In this document: positions 30,079 through 63,624 of the stretch, one piece after another
Layout of the letters: the number at the start of each line of letters is the position of its first letter
Numbering within the stretch: the first letter of the stretch is position 1
Origin: a virus
IMG/VR virus record: IMGVR_UViG_3300026488_000025
Span: 15,664 to 79,663 of that record
Length of the DNA stretch: 64,000 nt
Strand: one strand, 5' to 3'
Position numbers and translations under genes: made by a program
The notes under the pieces: model-generated
What the model saw: only the letters and a program-made list of their open reading frames with translations
The model's database searches: none
What the model was told of the DNA's origin: nothing

Positions 30079-30124
30079 AAGTCTATATAGTATTATTTAT
30101 ATAGACCGTTCAAGAAATCAAGTG

Positions 30125-52410: not shown

Positions 52411-53115
52411 ATATTTTTTGAATTTCTCAGTTTTCTCGACTGGTCAGCGTTACTTAAAGATACTGACTTACCCTACGATTGTTTATGATATAATTCTAAC
52501 CTTTAACAGTACAAAGCGTTAAGTTTCAGATATCCGAAGACCTTGTTCATAACGCTTTGTACTATTAAAAATACAAAAAAGTAATCTGTTATTGATTAAC
52601 CACGATACCTTATTCTTAATACTTCCTTAACGAATCGGAGATAAGGGTAACAAGTTTTTTACTCAAGGTTCAATAACTGTATTATCATTGCGACTCTTCA
52701 TCGACTAAATATTTCTACACTTCTCGTTTGTGCTTCAAATACATTGATTACTTTTTATGTCTTTCTTCTTTTGTAGTAACATTATAACATAGTGTTACTT
52801 AATTTTTGTTTAATAAATTGTGCTACATAAAGGTTTCGACCCTTTCAAATTCTCATAGAAATGTAACATATTGTTTACAATCAAATTTACTGGCACATTG
52901 TCAAGAGGTGTAAATAGATTATATTTTCAAGGACTGTCTAATCCTCTGCTCTATTGTATCAAATGTACGAGGAGAGTATCCACTTATAACCGTGACAAAG
53001 GCTACTAACAAAATACCTAGATACAGATATTCTTTTAGTAACTTTCTCTTTATATGTAGTATTATAACATACAAAGACTTAAAATATACTGAATTACTAA
53101 AAGAAGAGAAAAGAA

Positions 53116-55245
53116 TTACAGTAAATCGTTCCTCTCTTCTACCATCAGTACAAGCGACTCAAATAATTCTTCAGAACTTTTTTCCATCTTTTGTAGCGTT
53201 TCTTCTATACCAGGGTTGAATTTGTCTTTCATTCGCAAATTTATTGCCTCTTGTGCCTTCTCGTGGACATTTTGGTGGAACTTATTGATACCAGAAAAAT
53301 ATCTTGATTTACCGTACATTGTCTTACCTTCACCCAAGAACCATTTACCAAATCGGCAATCCGTGTGTTTGGACATAGTTTTATTTTCTGCTCCAAGGAT
53401 GGCATCATAAGCGTTTATTTTAAATATAAGATGCTCTATTTTTGTTAGAGAAACGATAATATCCTCAGAAATAACATTATTTCTTGCTGTATTATTGTTA
53501 TTCAGATTGCTTAGAACACTGATACGGTCATTAAGGTCTTCTGATACCGATGAAGCCTCACCAATAGATTTCATCATATTTTCTGTGCTTTCGTTCATTT
53601 CCGATGTATTTTGTTTAACCACATTAATACTAGCTTCTACATTTTTTGTAGCAGTCTGTGTTCTTTCTGCTAGTTTTCTTACCTCATCAGCAACAACAGC
53701 AAATCCTCTACCGTGTTCCCCTGCTCTTGCTGCTTCAATCGCTGCATTAAGTGCTAGTAAATTCGTTTGTTCTGAAATATCTTTAATAAGCTCAATAACG
53801 CTTGATATTTCATTTACTGATTCCTCTAGCTGCTGTGCAGATTCGGCTGTTCCTGTCATACCCTCTGATAATACCTGCAATGTATCTACCATCGTGTCTT
53901 TTGACGCAGTTAAAGAAGTAAAATCGTGTACTGCCTCTGTATTAAAATCATTTATTGTAGAAAGCTTAACCGTACTTTTTGAGAGAGCTTCTTTAATATC
54001 AGAAAGGTTATTAGTAGCTCCACCTGCCATTAAAGAATTTATACTAAGATTTAGTTCATTATCTTTTTGACCTAGTGCTAAATCTTTAGCTCTTTCTCTG
54101 ATTTCTTCATCTGATTTTGTTCTTTGTGTATCGGCTTCATTTAATGATGAGAATAAATTATTTATGCTTTGTTCTATTTCAGAAACCTCATCGGTACCAG
54201 TAACTACAATACTATTATTAAAATTATTAGAATCCTCTAAAATATTTTTCATACCCTCTATTCTAGTGATAAGGTTATTAGCAAATTTGAAACCTAGAAA
54301 AGACATCACTAGAGCAAATATTAGAGCTATTCCCATTTTTGTGAGCATCATCGTTAATAAATGTGATTTTTCTATGGCTGCATCTTTTTGGAGCACTTCA
54401 CCTAGAGTGATTTCTAATTCTCTAAGAGCATCAATCTTTCTCGTTATCGTCCTAAACCATTCACCTGGATTTGAGTCTAATGCAGTACCAGGCCCTCTTG
54501 CTAACAACATATTTCTCGTTCTCTCTACCTTGATATACTCTGGTGATATTTTGATGGAATCGAGAAGCTTTGTAGTCTCTGGTGTAGCTAGAGAACCGAA
54601 TTCTTTCAGGAATTTATTCTGCTCTGACACTAATACCACAAATTTTGAGAATGACTCTGTGCTGAATTGATTTTTTGTTAATGAACCCGTTACAACAGCT
54701 CTTTCTTTTCCTGCTAGTTCTTTTGAAGAGCTTAGATAACCTATCACGCTCATCTTTTTAATCGTTTCTGTATCTTTAGCTATGAATTTCGATAAGTTGA
54801 TAGCATCCAAATAAGTCCTATTCATAGTGCTAAAATATTGGACAACATCTTTCACTTCAATACTAAGGTTGTCTATACTGTTTCTTTTGTATGATATGTT
54901 ACTGTAAGACTGTAATGCTTTAGAGAATATCATCTTGCTGTCTTTATTAGGGAAATCAATATCTTTTACATCGTTGTAAGAAGAATCTACTTTGCTCCTA
55001 ATGTCTCGTATCTCTGACCTAAAATTTTTACCTTTTGAGCCTACGAAACCTGCAGAAGCACCTCTTTCTTGTTGTAGAAAATGTACGAGTTTGTTGATTT
55101 TGTTGTTTTCTGTGATTGTTTTTTCTAGTGTGGATATTGCTGTATAATCTCTGTATTCAGAAAATGTAAGGTAACTAAAACCTAATATAACAATAATTAC
55201 TGGTAGGACGGTGAGGGTTCTAAGTTTTGATGATATGTTTTTCAT
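53116..55245 (-). CDS. Methyl-accepting chemotaxis protein with NIT-like sensor and CZB domain
   Basis: Two TMs; LVH.LQQERG.S and KE.AGKERA (NIT); [37 protein letters not shown]; [15 protein letters not shown] (CZB). Confidence 0.92.
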
Positions 55246-55289
55246 ATTATGCTCTTTCTATTGATTTAACAATATTTATAGAGGCCTTA

Positions 55290-57006
55290 TCTTCATAAGG
55301 GCTTTTTTGAAACATCAGCAATTAAATCTGAATTAAGTTGTTTCTCACTTGGTTTTAGTTTTACTTCCTACTGACTGTTAAAGTAAGAATTTTTCATAAA
55401 ATAATCTATATAAGGTAATGTACACTTCCCTAAGTAAATTAATCTGCATTTTTTCAGCTTAACTAATTCAAAAATTTTACTTCTACGATGCCTCGAAAGA
55501 ACATCCTAAGATGCACTTGTGAAAACATTATAGAGAGTTTACGGACTTTTACCGCAGAAGATTGAACTTAATCAAAATCGTTACCTCGTGCAGACTCTAA
55601 CACACGATATGTTTTCTTATTGTTTTTAGTTGCAACATATTACAACAATAGCGTCCGACTCCACGCATCTTCGGACAAAGTTCTCTATTTTACGACTTAC
55701 CTTTTGTAGAGATAAAAGAGATTAATAAATTTCCAGTCATCGAATCTGGCACCCGTTGAATATACTAAATGCTACAAACATCGAGTAAATAATCAGGTTC
55801 GCCCACGCATTATAAACTTTTATAGATGTTGCCTACTCGGTGAGGATTATCACTACCTCTAGGTTGAATATCTCCAACTAGGTTCCGTTGTTTATTTTTA
55901 GGTCAAATCGTAAAAACCTTTGTTCTTTTTGACATTACATCGTTATCTATATCGGAACTAGACCCGAATCCCTCATCATTACAATGAGTACACTAAGTAT
56001 TTTGTGCTATATAGGTATTTAACATTTTCGATTAAATTAAAGGATTTGCACCTTTCTGTTCAGCCGCTTTTACCACAATTTCCCAGAAGGAATTGAACCC
56101 TCATAGCCACTTACTTGTTACTAAAAAATTTAATCTTCTATTTTTAGGTCTGGTTTCAAGATTCCTCTACACCCAATTACTACACCAATCTAAGGCGTAA
56201 CCCTCAACCCTATCAAGGTCGTTTCACATTATTTCGTTAATAGACACTTGCCAGCGATGCCGATTGTGAAGTCCTAGCCGTGAGGCGAGACAACCCAAGA
56301 CACTATCACTGGATGCCGTTATTAACTCAATAAAACTCTAACCATCCAGACTCCGATAGTTCCGCTACAATAACGGCCGTGGATTCGAACCTTAATAGAG
56401 TTTTATTGAATTAACATTGAATAACTATTATCTGTTCCACTTTATTCAAAAAGTTCAGCTGTGTTTCATCAGGTATTCTCAATTTTTTCAATTCGCAAAA
56501 CCAACTTCTATTTCCTTGTACTTCGGAATTTCTGTTGTTGTTTGATTAAAATATAAACAGTTCTTGAACATCATTTATACTTTCGACTTCTTTGAACTCG
56601 GATACTTCCTCTCTGTTCCTAAACCAAACGAGATTCGAACTCGTAACCTTCTCCGACCGTAGTGGGAAACGCTTTAACCATTTTAGCTTTTGGTGCTTTG
56701 TCTATTAATCAATTCTTACTGTGTATTTTGAGGTAATTAATCTCTAAATACTTTATAAAGATATAATAAATTTGGTAGTTTACATCTAGTCGAAATCCTC
56801 TTTCAAGGTACGAACAAGACAAAATTTATATCTTTATAAAGTACTCTATTAACTCAATAAAACCAACTTCCCAATTTCACTTTAGGAGCCATAACTAAGA
56901 TAGATGATGGTAAGTCATATCCCAAAGTTATGCTTTCTAGGCTACTTTATCGACAGCTATTTGAATCACCACGATTCCCTAGTACTGTTTGGTTTTATTG
57001 AATTAA
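55290..57006 (-). ncRNA. ORF-free island of multiple structured RNA modules, including tRNA-like elements
   Basis: No ORF of 60 aa or more; long bracketing stems; several T-loop hairpins; three tandem early promoters upstream. Confidence 0.55.
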
Positions 57007-57011
57007 CTCTC

Positions 57012-57262
57012 TTTATATGTAATATTATAACATAACCTTACTTAAAGTAAGATTAAATTCGATAAGAAACGCTCACATCTTGAACTTAATCAGATTCACT
57101 CATTTTGAGTAAATGACTCGGACTTACTTTCTTCTCTTATAGTACAATTATAACATAAAGTTACTTAAAAGTAACTGAAGTTTTTGATAAATCATAGAAC
57201 TTATAAAGAGAAAGTCTATATCCTCTTTATATGTAATATTATAACATAAGTAACCTTAGAGG
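57012..57262 (-). promoter_or_regulatory. Three tandem early promoters
   Basis: TATGTTATAAT motifs at about 57022-57035, 57146-57157 and 57237-57248. Confidence 0.7.
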
Positions 57263-57287
57263 CTACTTAACTTAGTAGCTTGTGGTA

Positions 57288-58973: not shown

Positions 58974-59053
58974 CTATTTCCTTTACGAGTATTATATCAT
59001 AAAAGTACTTAATAGGTGCTGTTGTACATTATGTCCTATTCCAATATACTTTG

Positions 59054-59126
59054 TCTAACTGGCAGGTAACGCTCCTGCTATCCCTTAGGCCCAAGCTAAG
59101 TGGGATGACTTTTTCCCTACAGCTAG
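59054..59126 (-). tRNA. tRNA-Pro(UGG), atypical T-loop, no CCA
   Basis: Loop CTTGGGC; T-arm GCAGG-AGCGTTA-CCTGC. Confidence 0.65.
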
Positions 59127-59147
59127 ACAAAATATACTATTTCTAAA

Positions 59148-59224
59148 TGGTGCTGATAGTAGGGTTCGAACCTACAGTCTCTTGATTACAAAACAAGGGC
59201 CTTATCCAGTTTAGCTATATCAGC
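59148..59224 (-). tRNA. tRNA-Thr(UGU)
   Basis: Loop TTTGTAA; CCA. Confidence 0.85.
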
Positions 59225-59234
59225 ATTTATATTT

Positions 59235-59308
59235 TGGTGGAGATAGAGGGAATCGAACCCTCGTTACTACATTGCAAGTGTAGTGTAATCCCGTTATACT
59301 ATATCCCC
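59235..59308 (-). tRNA. tRNA-Ala(UGC)
   Basis: Loop CTTGCAA; G3-U70; CCA. Confidence 0.88.
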
Positions 59309-59310
59309 AA

Positions 59311-59386
59311 TGGCGCCCACGGTTGGTTACGCTCCAACTCCTCTAGTTTTTCAGACTAGCGATTCTACTAAGTTATCTTCGTAGGC
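59311..59386 (-). tRNA. tRNA-Phe(GAA), atypical T-loop
   Basis: Loop CTGAAAA; T-loop AGCGTAA; CCA. Confidence 0.78.
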
Positions 59387-59396
59387 ATTTATATTT

Positions 59397-59470
59397 TGGT
59401 ACTCATACTAGGATTCGAACCTAGATTATCCGATTATCGGTCGAATGTTCTACCATTGAACTATACGAGC
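59397..59470 (-). tRNA. tRNA-Ile(GAU)
   Basis: Loop CCGATAA (C33); CCA. Confidence 0.8.
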
Positions 59471-59474
59471 ATAT

Positions 59475-59548
59475 TGGTTCGGATATGGAGAATCGAACTC
59501 CAACTGCTACTTCCCAAAAGTAGTGTGATACCATTTCACTATATCCAA
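59475..59548 (-). tRNA. tRNA-Pro(UGG)
   Basis: Loop TTTGGGA; CCA. Confidence 0.85.
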
Positions 59549-59551
59549 TTA

Positions 59552-59625
59552 TGGTGGAGACACGGAGAGTCGAACTCCGAACTCAACATTGCAAGTGTTG
59601 TGTAATCCCATTTTACTATGTCCCC
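59552..59625 (-). tRNA. tRNA-Ala(UGC)
   Basis: Loop CTTGCAA; CCA. Confidence 0.88.
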
Positions 59626-59629
59626 AATT

Positions 59630-59704
59630 TGGTTGTTCTTAGAAGATTTGAACTTCTGACCTATCCCTTATCAAGGGAGTGCTCTACCACTGAGCTAAAG
59701 AACA
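59630..59704 (-). tRNA. tRNA-Ile(GAU)
   Basis: Loop TTGATAA; CCA. Confidence 0.85.
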
Positions 59705-59709
59705 TTATT

Positions 59710-59784
59710 TGGTACTCGATAGGGGAGTTGAACCCCTCTCTCTGACTTGAAAAGACAGCGACCTTACCGATAGTCGAATCGAGC
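59710..59784 (-). tRNA. tRNA-Glu(UUC)
   Basis: Loop TTTTCAA; CCA. Confidence 0.82.
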
Positions 59785-59886
59785 ATATATTTTAACAATT
59801 TGAAGATAATTTTATGAAAGATAGAAATCTGAAGTTTCAAGTCTTTCAAGAAATTACTTCTCAAAAGACCTGTTTGAAGAGGTTCT

Positions 59887-59997
59887 TTAAGAAATAGTTT
59901 CCGTTTCGGGAATAAAGGCAATTTCTGCCGGTGTAAAGGCAATAATAGATTCAATAGTAATAGTTGTTTCAATAGTTTCGATTGTAATTGTTCTCAT
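59887..59997 (-). CDS. Ile/Thr-rich leader-like peptide 1 (36 aa)
   Basis: AAGGA SD; MRTITIETIETTITIESIIAFTPAEIAFIPETETIS. Confidence 0.55.
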   Translation of the reverse strand: MRTITIETIETTITIESIIAFTPAEIAFIPETETIS

Positions 59998-60058
59998 ATT
60001 ATTTCCTTTTTTGTTTTTTAATTTTATTTAATTATTTTATAGTCTTATATGACATTTA

Positions 60059-60133
60059 TGGTGGACCCACTAGGTATCGAACCTAGTTCTCTGTGTTAAA
60101 AGCACAGTACTTCACCATTAAAGTTTTAGGTCC
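60059..60133 (-). tRNA. tRNA-Lys(UUU)
   Basis: Loop CTTTTAA; CCA. Confidence 0.85.
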
Positions 60134-60137
60134 TTAA

Positions 60138-60213
60138 TGGTGTATCTGGAAGGAATCGAACCTTCGACCGGTAGGTTAAAAGCCCACTACTCTGACCGCT
60201 GAGTTACAGATAC
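60138..60213 (-). tRNA. tRNA-Lys(UUU)
   Basis: Loop CTTTTAA; CCA. Confidence 0.88.
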
Positions 60214-60342
60214 ATCTAAAAATAAGTTATTCGTTTATTTAAAGATGCATTCTAGGTTTATAACTATCTACCTAAACAACATCTATGATTTTTGCTATCT
60301 TCATAGTGTTTCCTTTTATTTTATTTGAGTTAGAATACTCTG

Positions 60343-60414
60343 CTCCGGGAGTCAGAATCGAACTGACCTTTGTATGATTAACAGTCACGCGCATCGCCTT
60401 GATGCTGTCCCGGA
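60343..60414 (-). tRNA. tRNA-Asn(GUU), no encoded CCA
   Basis: Loop CTGTTAA; TCCGGGA acceptor. Confidence 0.75.
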
Positions 60415-60435
60415 GCACAATATTCTAAAATTATA

Positions 60436-60509
60436 TGGATGAGATACCAGGGCTCGAACCTGGGATAATCGAGTCAAAGTCGATTGTAATGCCACTTTAC
60501 TATATCTCA
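60436..60509 (-). tRNA. tRNA-Gln(UUG)
   Basis: Loop CTTTGAC; CCA. Confidence 0.85.
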
Positions 60510-60518
60510 ACATTTTTA

Positions 60519-60602
60519 TGGTGTAGACTGGTGGACTCGAACCACTCCCCTAAAGACAAGATTTACAGTCTTGCTGCCGTATCCGAACGACTTTCAATCT
60601 AC
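60519..60602 (-). tRNA. tRNA-Tyr(GUA)
   Basis: Loop CTGTAAA; variable arm; CCA. Confidence 0.82.
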
Positions 60603-60606
60603 ATTT

Positions 60607-60681
60607 TTACCAAATTGTCATTATCATTGGTAATACTTTTATTGCTAAACCTAACACTATTAATTCTACAATCAATCTCAT
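60607..60681 (-). CDS. Small hydrophobic peptide (24 aa) between tRNAs
   Basis: AAGGA SD; MRLIVELIVLGLAIKVLPMIMTIW. Confidence 0.4.
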   Translation of the reverse strand: MRLIVELIVLGLAIKVLPMIMTIW

Positions 60682-60696
60682 TAAATTCCTTTATTC

Positions 60697-60772
60697 TGGC
60701 GGTCTATATCGGTTCTGACCCGATTACCTTTCCCGTGACAAGGGAATGCTCTTCCAATTGAGCTAATAGACC
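60697..60772 (-). tRNA. tRNA-Asp(GUC)
   Basis: Loop TTGTCAC; T-loop GTCAGAA; CCA. Confidence 0.82.
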
Positions 60773-60775
60773 TTT

Positions 60776-60850
60776 TGGTGATTCCTAGGGGAATTGAACC
60801 CCTCTCTGCGAATTGAAAGTACGCTGACCTTACCGATAGTCGAAGGAACC
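60776..60850 (-). tRNA. tRNA-Glu(UUC)
   Basis: Loop CTTTCAA; CCA. Confidence 0.85.
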
Positions 60851-60991
60851 ACTATTGTATTTGCTTTTACTATGCAAGAGATACAGTCCGGCATAAACTC
60901 TGTGAAGAGAAAGTTGAAAAGATAAATTTGATTTTTTTGAAGAAGTTTCGATGAAAGTTCCTTCAAAAAGGAACCTCATCTAAGAAGGTCC

Positions 60992-61120
60992 CTATTGGGT
61001 AATTTGTTCCTGCGCCGGATTATAATTAAAATCATAATCGATTTCAGCATTAAAGGCTGGAGTAATAGTTTGTTTATAATCAGTTGTAAAAGTAATTTCT
61101 TTTGTAATGATAGTTTTCAT
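60992..61120 (-). CDS. Ile/Thr-rich leader-like peptide 2 (42 aa)
   Basis: AAGGAG SD; MKTIITKEITFTTDYKQTITPAFNAEIDYDFNYNPAQEQITQ. Confidence 0.55.
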   Translation of the reverse strand: MKTIITKEITFTTDYKQTITPAFNAEIDYDFNYNPAQEQITQ

Positions 61121-61162
61121 ACTATTCTCCTTGTTTATATTTGTTGTATTTATAAGACTCAA

Positions 61163-61321
61163 AAAGTCTATATACTCTCTTATTGTTTGTAGATGTATTA
61201 TAACATAGTGTTACTTAATTTCTACTTAACTTAGAAAAGAATTTAAACCTTTTAAAGTCTATATACTCTCTTTCGTTTTGTAGATGTATTATAACATAGT
61301 GTTACTTAATTTCTACTTAAC
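61163..61321 (-). repeat. Tandem duplicated early promoter unit upstream of the tRNA cluster
   Basis: TGTAGATGTATTATAACATAGTGTTACTTAATTTCTACTTAAC occurs twice, each preceded by AAAGTCTATATACTCTC; a third promoter near 61390-61416. Confidence 0.75.
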
Positions 61322-61452
61322 CTTGTGATTTCTTTTCAGAAAAACATTTAAAGACTCCGATGAGTTCTTAAATAGTCTTCCTCTTTATACGGTGTATTAT
61401 AACATACAGTTACTTAAAATAAGATTGAAAATATATCGAATTTATCTGTCTA

Positions 61453-62527: not shown

Positions 62528-63142
62528 TTACAATAAATCGGCGTATTTACCTAATTTCAGTCTAGTGCTTCTATAATCTGCGAAAAGTTTCTTGATAGCC
62601 TTATTCGAAGCTATATCCTCAGCCTTTTTACCTTTATGATTTTCTATTTCTAAATCGGGGTTATGCTTAAGGTATCTCTCAATGAATCCATCACGACCTA
62701 ATTCTGATGCCATCATCAAAGCCGTATATCCCTTATCATTTATGTGGTTAATATCTGCTCCAGCTTTGATTAAGGTTTCTATCACTGCTCTTGACCCTCT
62801 CATTCCTGCTCTCATTAATGGTGTTGTCCCTTGGTTGTTCTCTACATCTGGATTTATGCCACCTTTCAGTAACATTTTTACTAGAGTAAGATTATTTGTA
62901 CTAGCACTTTCGTGTAATAGAGTGTCACCATCTTCATCAGCGTAGTCACCTTTTACCTTGATGTTGCTCATCAGTAATTTTAATATTTTATCACCACAAC
63001 CCATATTAATGGCTGTGAAAATAACCTCATCTCCACCAGCATCTTTGTCATCAGCTCTAAGGCCTGTAGCAAGAATCTTTTTTGTTAGGCTTATATCCTC
63101 TGATACAACAGCATCAACTAGTTTTTCTACATCGTATTCCAT
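62528..63142 (-). CDS. Ankyrin-repeat protein ending KLGKYADLL
   Basis: GDTLLH, GTTPLM, GYTALM repeats. Confidence 0.9.
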   Translation of the reverse strand: MEYDVEKLVDAVVSEDISLTKKILATGLRADDKDAGGDEVIFTAINMGCGDKILKLLMSNIKVKGDYADEDGDTLLHESASTNNLTLVKMLLKGGINPDVENNQGTTPLMRAGMRGSRAVIETLIKAGADINHINDKGYTALMMASELGRDGFIERYLKHNPDLEIENHKGKKAEDIASNKAIKKLFADYRSTRLKLGKYADLL

Positions 63143-63624
63143 TAGTCATCTCCTAGTAAAGCAGCATATTTTCCGATTTTTTTGTTCTTCTCGTGTTCTA
63201 TAATTAAAGGGCTGTATTGTGAGTATTTTGCTTTGACCATATCCCTTACTGAACCATCACGATATGCCGATAAATCAAGATTCGGGTTGTACCTTAATAA
63301 CAGCTTAAATATTGTGCTAGATACCTTATTGAATAGTGCCATATGCACAGGCGTTACACCTTGTGCAGTCTGAAAATCTATATCTGCTCCAGCTTCTAAT
63401 AAGGTTAGAATCGTTAGATAATCTCCTGAGTAAATTCCCCAAGCGAGAATCGATTGCCCCATTTCATCAACGATACTAGTATCAGCACCTTTACTCAATA
63501 AATGTTTAACAGCCCTAGCATCTCCATCACGAGAAACCTTTTTGAGGGCAGTATCACCATCATTATTTACAAAATTTACATCGCCAGCTTGTTCTATATA
63601 TGCATCTAAATCATCGTTACTCAT
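63142..63624 (-). CDS. Ankyrin-repeat protein ending KIGKYAALLGDD
   Basis: GDTAL, LL.AGAD, GVTPVH. Confidence 0.88.
   Translation of the reverse strand: MSNDDLDAYIEQAGDVNFVNNDGDTALKKVSRDGDARAVKHLLSKGADTSIVDEMGQSILAWGIYSGDYLTILTLLEAGADIDFQTAQGVTPVHMALFNKVSSTIFKLLLRYNPNLDLSAYRDGSVRDMVKAKYSQYSPLIIEHEKNKKIGKYAALLGDD

Follow-up and report, generated by a model that had tools for sequence, protein, structure and literature searches.

Candidate leader ORFs matched in composition to the tRNA genes downstream of them in an uncultured T4-like phage and its relatives

Enterobacterial amino-acid operons are controlled by leader-peptide attenuators, among them those of thr (Thr, Ile), ilvGMEDA (Ile, Leu, Val), trp, his, leu and phe. 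The tRNA genes of phages are usually viewed as constitutive cargo, serving as a codon-usage patch or replacing tRNAs cut by host defences. In Anabaena a silent 26-gene tRNA array carried by a megaplasmid and named the trn operon is induced by translational stress under the control of the repressor TrcR (PMC8421152, PMC10272220); the words leader, attenuat- and stall are absent from both of these papers. A full-text literature search found no paper on leader-peptide control of tRNA genes. The subject here is a 64,000-nucleotide stretch of DNA (the window), bases 15664–79663 of the 79.7-kb viral contig IMGVR_UViG_3300026488_000025, whose source is an uncultured T4-like phage. Two small open reading frames (ORFs) in it each precede a sub-cluster of tRNA genes and, from their sequence, look like regulatory leaders rather than proteins. 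Probably, although with some reservation, they act in cis: a pioneer ribosome would gauge the decoding of codons read by the downstream tRNAs, and an RNA switch would set transcription of the array, with slow decoding giving more tRNA.

The ORFs and their arrays lie as follows.

59887–59997 (start 59997), minus strand: candidate leader ORF 1, 36 amino acids, with an AAGGAA Shine–Dalgarno sequence (SD) 5 nt 5' of the ATG
60992–61120 (start 61120), minus strand: candidate leader ORF 2, 42 amino acids, with an AAGGAG SD 6 nt 5' of the ATG
61127–61132, minus strand: the SD AAGGAG of ORF 2
59053–59784, minus strand: tRNA sub-cluster A, Glu(UUC), Ile(GAU), Ala(UGC), Pro(UGG), Ile(GAU), Phe(GAA), Ala(UGC), Thr(UGU), Pro(UGG) (ARAGORN, Rfam)
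60059–60850, minus strand: tRNA sub-cluster B, Glu(UUC), Asp(GUC), Tyr(GUA), Gln(UUG), Asn(GUU), Lys(UUU) twice (ARAGORN, Rfam)

Both ORFs are co-oriented with the arrays. Sub-cluster A follows ORF 1 and sub-cluster B follows ORF 2, with 16 tRNA genes in total 3' of ORF 2; the distance from stop codon to first tRNA is 102 nt for ORF 1 and 141 nt for ORF 2. An earlier note, made from the letters of this DNA alone, had described two SD-led ORFs here, each followed by homologous hairpins and a tRNA-Glu gene. The ORFs are present as described, both on the minus strand, and so are the hairpins. The post-stop regions of the two modules give a better alignment than all but one of 500 dinucleotide shuffles. 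Between the two tRNA-Glu genes, identity is 76%.

The composition of the encoded peptides matches the downstream tRNAs far beyond chance. Measured against a background of minus-strand contig ORFs of at least 120 amino acids, 32 of the 35 non-start residues of ORF 1 are among the six kinds that sub-cluster A serves, {E,I,A,P,F,T} (background 0.345; p = 3e-12), and the five that belong to the upstream block (D, Y, Q, N, K) are absent from the 35. All 41 non-start residues of ORF 2 fall in the union of both sets (background 0.636; p = 9e-9), and its amino acids are exactly the 11 served by the two sub-clusters. The leaders are nested: upstream ORF 2 lists both blocks, downstream ORF 1 its own only. 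The earlier note had claimed that peptide 1 mirrors the tRNAs downstream of it and that peptide 2 adds those of its own block, and the counts bear out both claims. The match extends to codons. With U34 assumed to read all four codons in four-codon boxes, downstream tRNAs can read 41/41 codons of ORF 2 and 32/35 of ORF 1; the exceptions are two Ser UCU and one Arg AGA, the latter served by a distant phage tRNA-Arg(UCU). Ile AUA, unreadable by the GAU anticodon, makes up 0/16 leader Ile codons against 31% genome-wide, and seven of the ten Ala and Pro codons in the leaders are of the rare G/C-ending kind.

A sceptical reading is that these are chance open frames in an AT-rich, repeat-like spacer and that the tRNA match is coincidental. 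ORF 1 is indeed of low complexity, with repeated ACU-AUU-GAA units, and DNA rich in A and T leans towards codons for Ile, Thr, Lys and Asn. Against this, both ORFs are extreme outliers among the 333 ORFs of 30–60 amino acids in the six frames of the contig, with scores of 0.91 against a next best of 0.66, and of 0.93 and 0.91 against a next best of 0.78. A homologue search took in the ORF 2 peptide, ORF 1 at 36 amino acids being under its length limit. An identical peptide is encoded on a 331-kb contig, and a further homologue, P0002, is 86% identical, with in-frame indels and an unchanged amino-acid set. Profile search of Pfam and PHROGs gave no family at E <= 1 for either window peptide.

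Related phages were sought without the peptides as queries. Seven testable modules from four phage genomes resulted, two in the window and five on three further phage contigs. With a 19-mer of the tRNA-Glu gene, contig G001 (locus L002) was found, where a 32-amino-acid ORF has the same late-promoter box as ORF 2 (see below), the same SD and a homologous post-stop hairpin. Its array reads Asn, Phe, Asp, Thr, Leu, Tyr, Trp, Glu, Gln, His, Ser; 29 of 31 leader residues lie within this set, and all 11 specificities are present. The 235-kb contig G002, found via a neighbouring-gene homologue, carries two further modules. One of its leaders contains six Asn, from which an unrecognised tRNA 78 nt downstream was predicted to be tRNA-Asn; ARAGORN at a lower threshold calls it as such, at the position of an Infernal tRNA. 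The other contains the run Pro-Phe-Phe-Pro-Cys-Arg-Trp-Leu before tRNAs Pro, Phe, Trp, Leu, Leu, Cys, Arg. A search by alignment brought up 21 related contigs, the closest of which, G003, has two leaders with the late box; these were looked at only once the test was fixed. The array after leader A reads Ile, Thr, Glu, Tyr, Gln, Asn, Lys, Lys, His, Ile, and 32 of the leader's 40 residues match (p = 1e-5), with all eight specificities covered and the other eight residues taken from the next block. The array after leader B reads Asp, Ser, Pro, Met, Ala, Ala, Val, Phe, Leu, Leu, Trp, Arg, Ser; 32 of the leader's 46 residues match (p = 3e-3), all ten specificities are covered, and T, E, Y, Q, K and H are absent.

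Over the seven modules, the match of each leader to its own set has p = 9e-9, 3e-12, 1e-5, 5e-7, 3e-6, 1e-5 and 3e-3. Every tRNA specificity of the array, rare Trp, Cys and His included, is present in 7/7 leaders; full coverage by chance, given exclusivity, has a probability of ~1% by a hand estimate on the first five modules. Among all 5040 permutations of peptides over arrays the true pairing alone ranks first, with either of two definitions of the tRNA set. The upstream leaders of the window and of G003 take their remaining residues from the downstream block. Between modules the peptide sequence is not conserved, and the promoter, SD, hairpin and flanking RNA are. The correlation of peptide and tRNA composition that the earlier note had proposed looking for in related phages holds across them. 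Replication in genomes with quite different sets (Trp, Cys, His and Ser among them), the first rank of the true pairing and the conservation of SDs, promoters and covarying structure make chance frames a very improbable explanation.

Two leaders were left out of the test. That of G019 precedes a 22-tRNA array covering nearly every amino acid and gives no power, and contig L017 ends 29 nt past the hairpin; the L017 leader is rich in Ser/Val/Pro/Gly/His/Cys. In Cronobacter phage GAP31, an unrelated control, small ORFs near the arrays show no match, the arrays covering nearly all amino acids and so leaving little power. Searches by blastn and tblastn against cultured phages returned tRNA matches or noise only, and single-protein scans of IMG/VR returned nothing or one distant relative. 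Of the 19 matches of a metagenome motif scan two alone are real, L017 and L014, the latter from the phage of L002; a looser motif run on IMG/VR yielded 111 matches and a scan of GTDB genomes four, all chance. The contig L003 was rejected as a relative, being unrelated and GC-rich.

Several details of the related arrays are recorded in their own right. In G002, ORFs (one of 168 amino acids) are inserted between the leader's first tRNA and the rest (L023 1300–2000; L024 reverse 2120–2626). On the reverse strand of L017, at 430–560, mini-ORFs of 13 and 15 codons lie just 5' of tRNA-Phe, the first with the leader's SD context, together with a tRNA-like segment ending in CCA that ARAGORN does not call. 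The complete 214-kb relative G006 has ARAGORN tRNAs with the suppressor-type anticodons CUA and UUA (L166 2188–2262, 7333–7406).

The RNA at the leader ends is predicted to form a switch. Three hairpins are involved, H1, H2 and an alternative, Hx. Folding was repeated with the 15 nt from the stop codon masked, mimicking a terminating ribosome. The predicted elements in the window, including segments that could pair with the SD (anti-SD), are these.

59858–59893, minus strand: H1 of module 1, stop codon UAA paired within the 5' arm, core CUUCUUAAAG ... UUUGAGAAG (folding, covariation)
59838–59872, minus strand: Hx of module 1, a 15-bp alternative hairpin of the H1 3' arm and downstream sequence (folding)
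59806–59857, minus strand: H2 of module 1, forming with H1 and excluded by Hx (folding)
60969–60993, minus strand: H1 of module 2, 5' arm beginning at the stop codon with only its last nucleotides paired, followed by U5 (folding)
60951–60979, minus strand: Hx of module 2, joining the H1 3' arm to downstream sequence once the stop-codon region is masked (folding)
60935–60968, minus strand: H2 of module 2, forming with H1 and excluded by Hx (folding)
61059–61072, minus strand: anti-SD in ORF 2, pairing with the SD/AUG region 61130–61118 (duplex −12.1 kcal/mol; 5/500 shuffles as good)
59935–59949, minus strand: anti-SD in ORF 1, pairing with the SD/AUG region 60009–59994 (10/500 shuffles as good)

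In the free RNA, the predicted H1 5' arm contains or directly abuts the stop codon in all six modules first examined. With the stop masked, the H1 3' arm is predicted to form an 8–15-bp Hx with the next segment, excluding H2. In module 1 all 13 bases of the H1 3' arm change partner (2/300 shuffles as good). The dual pairing is clearly above shuffles in four of the six modules (0–2/300 as good) and weaker in module 2 (38/300) and G002_a (12/300). For H1 of the CUUCUUAAAG type, 93% of cells are paired over four sequences, with compensatory changes at four pairs; this is matched by 5/500 shuffles, and slid controls are 45–67% paired. An H1 covariance model finds one site each in G000, G001 and G002, every one of them a leader. 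Pairing of the SD with an anti-SD segment 39–71 nt into the ORF exceeds shuffles in four of six modules, both window ones included (0–10/500). The folding of alternative structures that the earlier note had suggested thus yields, by prediction, mutually exclusive H1 and Hx anchored on the stop codon, with a covarying H1.

Processing of H1 by RNase III is unlikely, given stems of anywhere between 9 and 20 bp. The idea that hairpin segment 3 pairs with the anticodon arm of tRNA-Glu, much as in a T-box, was dropped, since relatives lead with tRNA-Asn and have nothing comparable. In an Rfam scan of the window only tRNA models pass, and no T-box or other cis-regulator reaches its gathering score.

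The ORFs might also be translated for some other reason, as micro-proteins or for coverage, processing or stability of the precursor RNA, avoiding tRNA-less amino acids to stay translatable after a collapse of host tRNA; in that case the hairpins would serve as 3' stabilisers or as sites of processing. A contig tRNA exists for nearly every residue of both window peptides, Arg AGA included via tRNA-Arg(UCU), the strong SDs and late promoters are typical of expressed genes, and the close homologue P0002 keeps its frame across indels. This explanation is nevertheless unlikely. It accounts neither for the avoidance of the five upstream-block amino acids in ORF 1 nor for the representation of every array tRNA type in all leaders, and it leaves unexplained a free peptide sequence whose composition tracks the array, as well as the two alternative, conserved pairings of the H1 3' arm and the placing of the stop codon in the stem. 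The peptides also match no protein family.

Promoter elements precede the proposed leaders. On the minus strand from 61450 down, the order is three promoter repeats, late box, SD, ORF 2, 141 nt of structured RNA and sub-cluster B, and then a near-consensus late box, the AAGGAA SD, ORF 1, 102 nt of structured RNA and sub-cluster A.

61197–61420, minus strand: three tandem sigma-70-like promoter repeats with extended −10 (TGTTATAAT)
~61401–61396, 61293–61288 and 61202–61197, minus strand: −10 hexamers of these repeats
61147–61154, minus strand: putative T4-type late promoter box TATAAATA, 26 nt 5' of the ORF 2 start
60034–60041, minus strand: late-promoter-like box TATAAAAT, one mismatch to TATAAATA, 5' of ORF 1 (read by eye)

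The sigma-70-like extended −10 type also occurs upstream of the L017 leader and at window position 52790. The box TATAAATA is very likely the late promoter of the phage, because the coding strand has 26 copies, usually 20–35 nt 5' of gene starts, that of the gp23-like capsid gene included. It precedes six of nine family leaders, L017 included; the copy 5' of ORF 1 departs from it by one base, and none was seen ahead of the L023 leader. A short motif, GAGAGTATATAGACTTT, follows each promoter repeat (61160–61390, minus strand) and also lies just 3' of other genes' late boxes, e.g. near 30101 and 16426; it may be a 5'-UTR element common to several genes. A hairpin with U5 lies 3' of the first promoter repeat, at ~61375–61340 on the minus strand.

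From these elements a mechanism can be proposed; the ORFs would presumably be translated, with an effect on transcription. (i) Early promoters and a late promoter would transcribe the leader. (ii) A ribosome would load at the strong SD, after which the in-ORF anti-SD would sequester the SD and hold translation to about one round. (iii) With fast decoding, the ribosome would cover the H1 5' arm as the 3' arm emerges, and the 3' arm would join Hx. (iv) Hx, which in some relatives runs into a stretch of U, would be the OFF form, acting as a terminator, as a pause or by exposing a Rho entry site. (v) At any slow codon, the more stable H1 would form first and lock the 3' arm away, and polymerase would continue into the tRNA genes. 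H1 would in this scheme be an antiterminator that forms first, with the default ON. ORF 2 would gate both sub-clusters and hence all 11 amino acids, ORF 1 sub-cluster A alone and hence only its six. Because the whole ORF is restricted in composition, every tRNA type is represented and the leaders are nested, the gauge would sum the decoding delay over every codon and sound an alarm at any one short tRNA. The switch comes from structure prediction and comparison, and from it we infer an output and a direction. More tentatively, and with slightly less than even confidence, a class of 'tRNA-roster' leaders in large T4-like phages may be proposed, in which slow decoding at any one of up to 11 cognate codons would call up transcription of a block, via an antiterminator-first, default-ON switch flipped by the terminating ribosome.

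Several points weigh against this reading. A scan with a terminator consensus found no canonical intrinsic terminator after either window ORF, and module 1 Hx has no U-tail. H1 itself is U5-tailed in module 2 and in G003_A, which would suit the opposite polarity. The tRNA-set rules were picked after the first cases had been seen. The codon-level match of G002_b is poor (17/44), and its amino-acid match leans on a low-scoring tRNA-Ser. In the more distant array-bearing relatives G006, G021 and G016, no clear leader appeared under the filter used. As for the first of these points, canonical terminators are few anywhere in the phage, so that their absence after the leaders says little either way. 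The sequence on either side of the leader stop codon is G-poor and C/U-rich, which makes an exit through Rho, of the kind known from the tna operon, conceivable, although this is speculation. The idea of ribosome-stalling attenuators, put forward in the earlier note, is in part upheld: leader composition tracks the arrays and exclusive pairings are anchored on the stop codon, whereas a canonical terminator is not evident in the window.

One rival concerns the direction of control. In a pyrBI-like arrangement the same leader and switch would work with opposite polarity: H1, or H1 with H2, would be a terminator blocked by a close ribosome, and the array would be transcribed only under fast decoding, as a positive feedback or a check of translation competence. 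The H1 stem of module 2, 7–9 bp with 4–5 G–C pairs, and H1 of G003_A both run into U5, and the U-tailed hairpin of G002_a is H2, which co-forms with H1. From stop codon to the end of the H1 U-run is ~30–40 nt, close to the ribosome-to-polymerase spacing in coupled complexes. A hairpin overlapped by the leader end, the pyrBI geometry, fits module 2 and G003_A and does not fit module 1, G001 or L017; in these last three the apparent H1 U-tail lies within a longer H1 stem. In G001, G003_A and G003_B, moreover, a hairpin with a U-rich tail uses the H1 3' arm. Since these U-tailed hairpins compete with H1, they support structurally the direction in which shortage turns the array on, a support that is found only in the relatives G001 and G003. 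There is also no obvious use in silencing tRNA genes during a tRNA shortage, and full coverage of tRNA types fits an alarm at any shortage better than a gate that opens when all supplies are good. Opposite polarity is on these grounds improbable, and antitermination by H1 under slow decoding is the reading followed below.

Further small ORFs lie among the tRNA genes of the window. Between tRNA-Asn and the tRNA-Lys pair is a mini-ORF of 10 codons with a AAAGGAAAC SD (60272–60304, minus strand) and two Lys in its first five codons; it could, from its sequence, be a Lys-specific mini-leader. It also holds AUA and Val codons without a phage tRNA. Its spacer, SD and first codons are kept at the DNA level at the same position in G003 (L165:2311–2448), where the stop is lost and the ORF extends to 14 amino acids. 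An SD-led, strongly hydrophobic ORF of 24 amino acids lies between tRNA-Asp and tRNA-Tyr (60607–60681, minus strand), its composition (Leu, Val, Gly, Met, Trp) unlike the arrays. Upstream of a separate Met-Met-Thr-Arg tRNA cluster no SD-led leader ORF was seen: ~370 nt without one (within 52411–52800, minus strand) separate the cluster from an early-promoter copy (AAATTAAGTAAC ... TGTTATAAT) and contain a long inverted repeat at ~52560–52500. A TATAAATA box lies between the two tRNA-Met genes (52332).

The contig as a whole has 33% GC, carries a gp23-type capsid gene and is ~33% complete by the CheckV estimate. The capsid protein is only ~25% identical to that of cultured T4-like phages, and nearly all genes, with the 20 tRNAs lacking no exception, lie on the minus strand. 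Encoded proteins include a NIT-MCP-CZB chemoreceptor-like one and two with ankyrin repeats (53116–55245 and 62528–63624, minus strand), which together with the GC content hints at a Campylobacterota-type host. The 2-kb stretch 55246–57287, between the chemoreceptor-like and epimerase-like genes, has no ORF of at least 70 amino acids on either strand.

If the proposed control is real, the phage would measure decoding capacity and tune its tRNA supply block by block, and ribosome-mediated attenuation would reach from amino-acid supply to decoder supply. The phage would possess a built-in sensor of, and response to, tRNA depletion, be it from codon-usage mismatch, host shut-off or anticodon-nuclease defences. 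Such a leader would be a compact natural sensor for many tRNAs at once, and would make the timing and purpose of phage tRNA expression directly testable. The rule predicts in both directions, from leader to array content (e.g. for the truncated contig L017) and from array to leader composition.

Comparison with described systems places the locus as follows. Like the attenuators of amino-acid operons, it has a short SD-led ORF rich in codons of the supply it would report, mutually exclusive RNA pairings at the ORF end, rare codons that would add sensitivity and a sequestered ribosome-binding site that would allow about one round of translation. Unlike them, it would gate tRNA genes rather than biosynthetic enzymes, so that the decoder itself would serve as the signal; as many as 11 amino acids are involved, with a whole ORF of 32–54 amino acids restricted in composition instead of a short codon run; and this window shows no canonical terminator. 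The first hairpin contains or adjoins the stop codon, in contrast to the four-segment trp design, and this suggests an antiterminator-first, default-ON layout. T-box riboswitches are likewise cis-acting RNAs that report tRNA status and control read-through, but there uncharged tRNA is bound directly, a leader ORF is lacking, and the genes under control are aminoacyl-tRNA synthetase and amino-acid genes. In the tna operon, as is proposed here, an event at the stop codon of a leader, tnaC, decides the downstream transcript without a canonical intrinsic terminator, and a G-poor, C/U-rich stretch adjoins that stop codon; tnaC, however, senses free tryptophan via the nascent peptide, not tRNA supply. 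The pyrBI and pyrE attenuators share a long leader ORF (~40 amino acids), a ribosome that must match the pace of polymerase and a hairpin at the ORF end. They sense UTP via polymerase pausing, and a close ribosome gives read-through, whereas here decoding speed would be sensed and the logic is likely to be reversed. The Anabaena trn operon resembles the present case in that an accessory tRNA array is turned on when translation is impaired, and differs in its control by a repressor protein and its place on a bacterial megaplasmid rather than in a phage. In kind, the proposed control is ribosome-mediated attenuation with a new target, tRNA genes, and a new layout.

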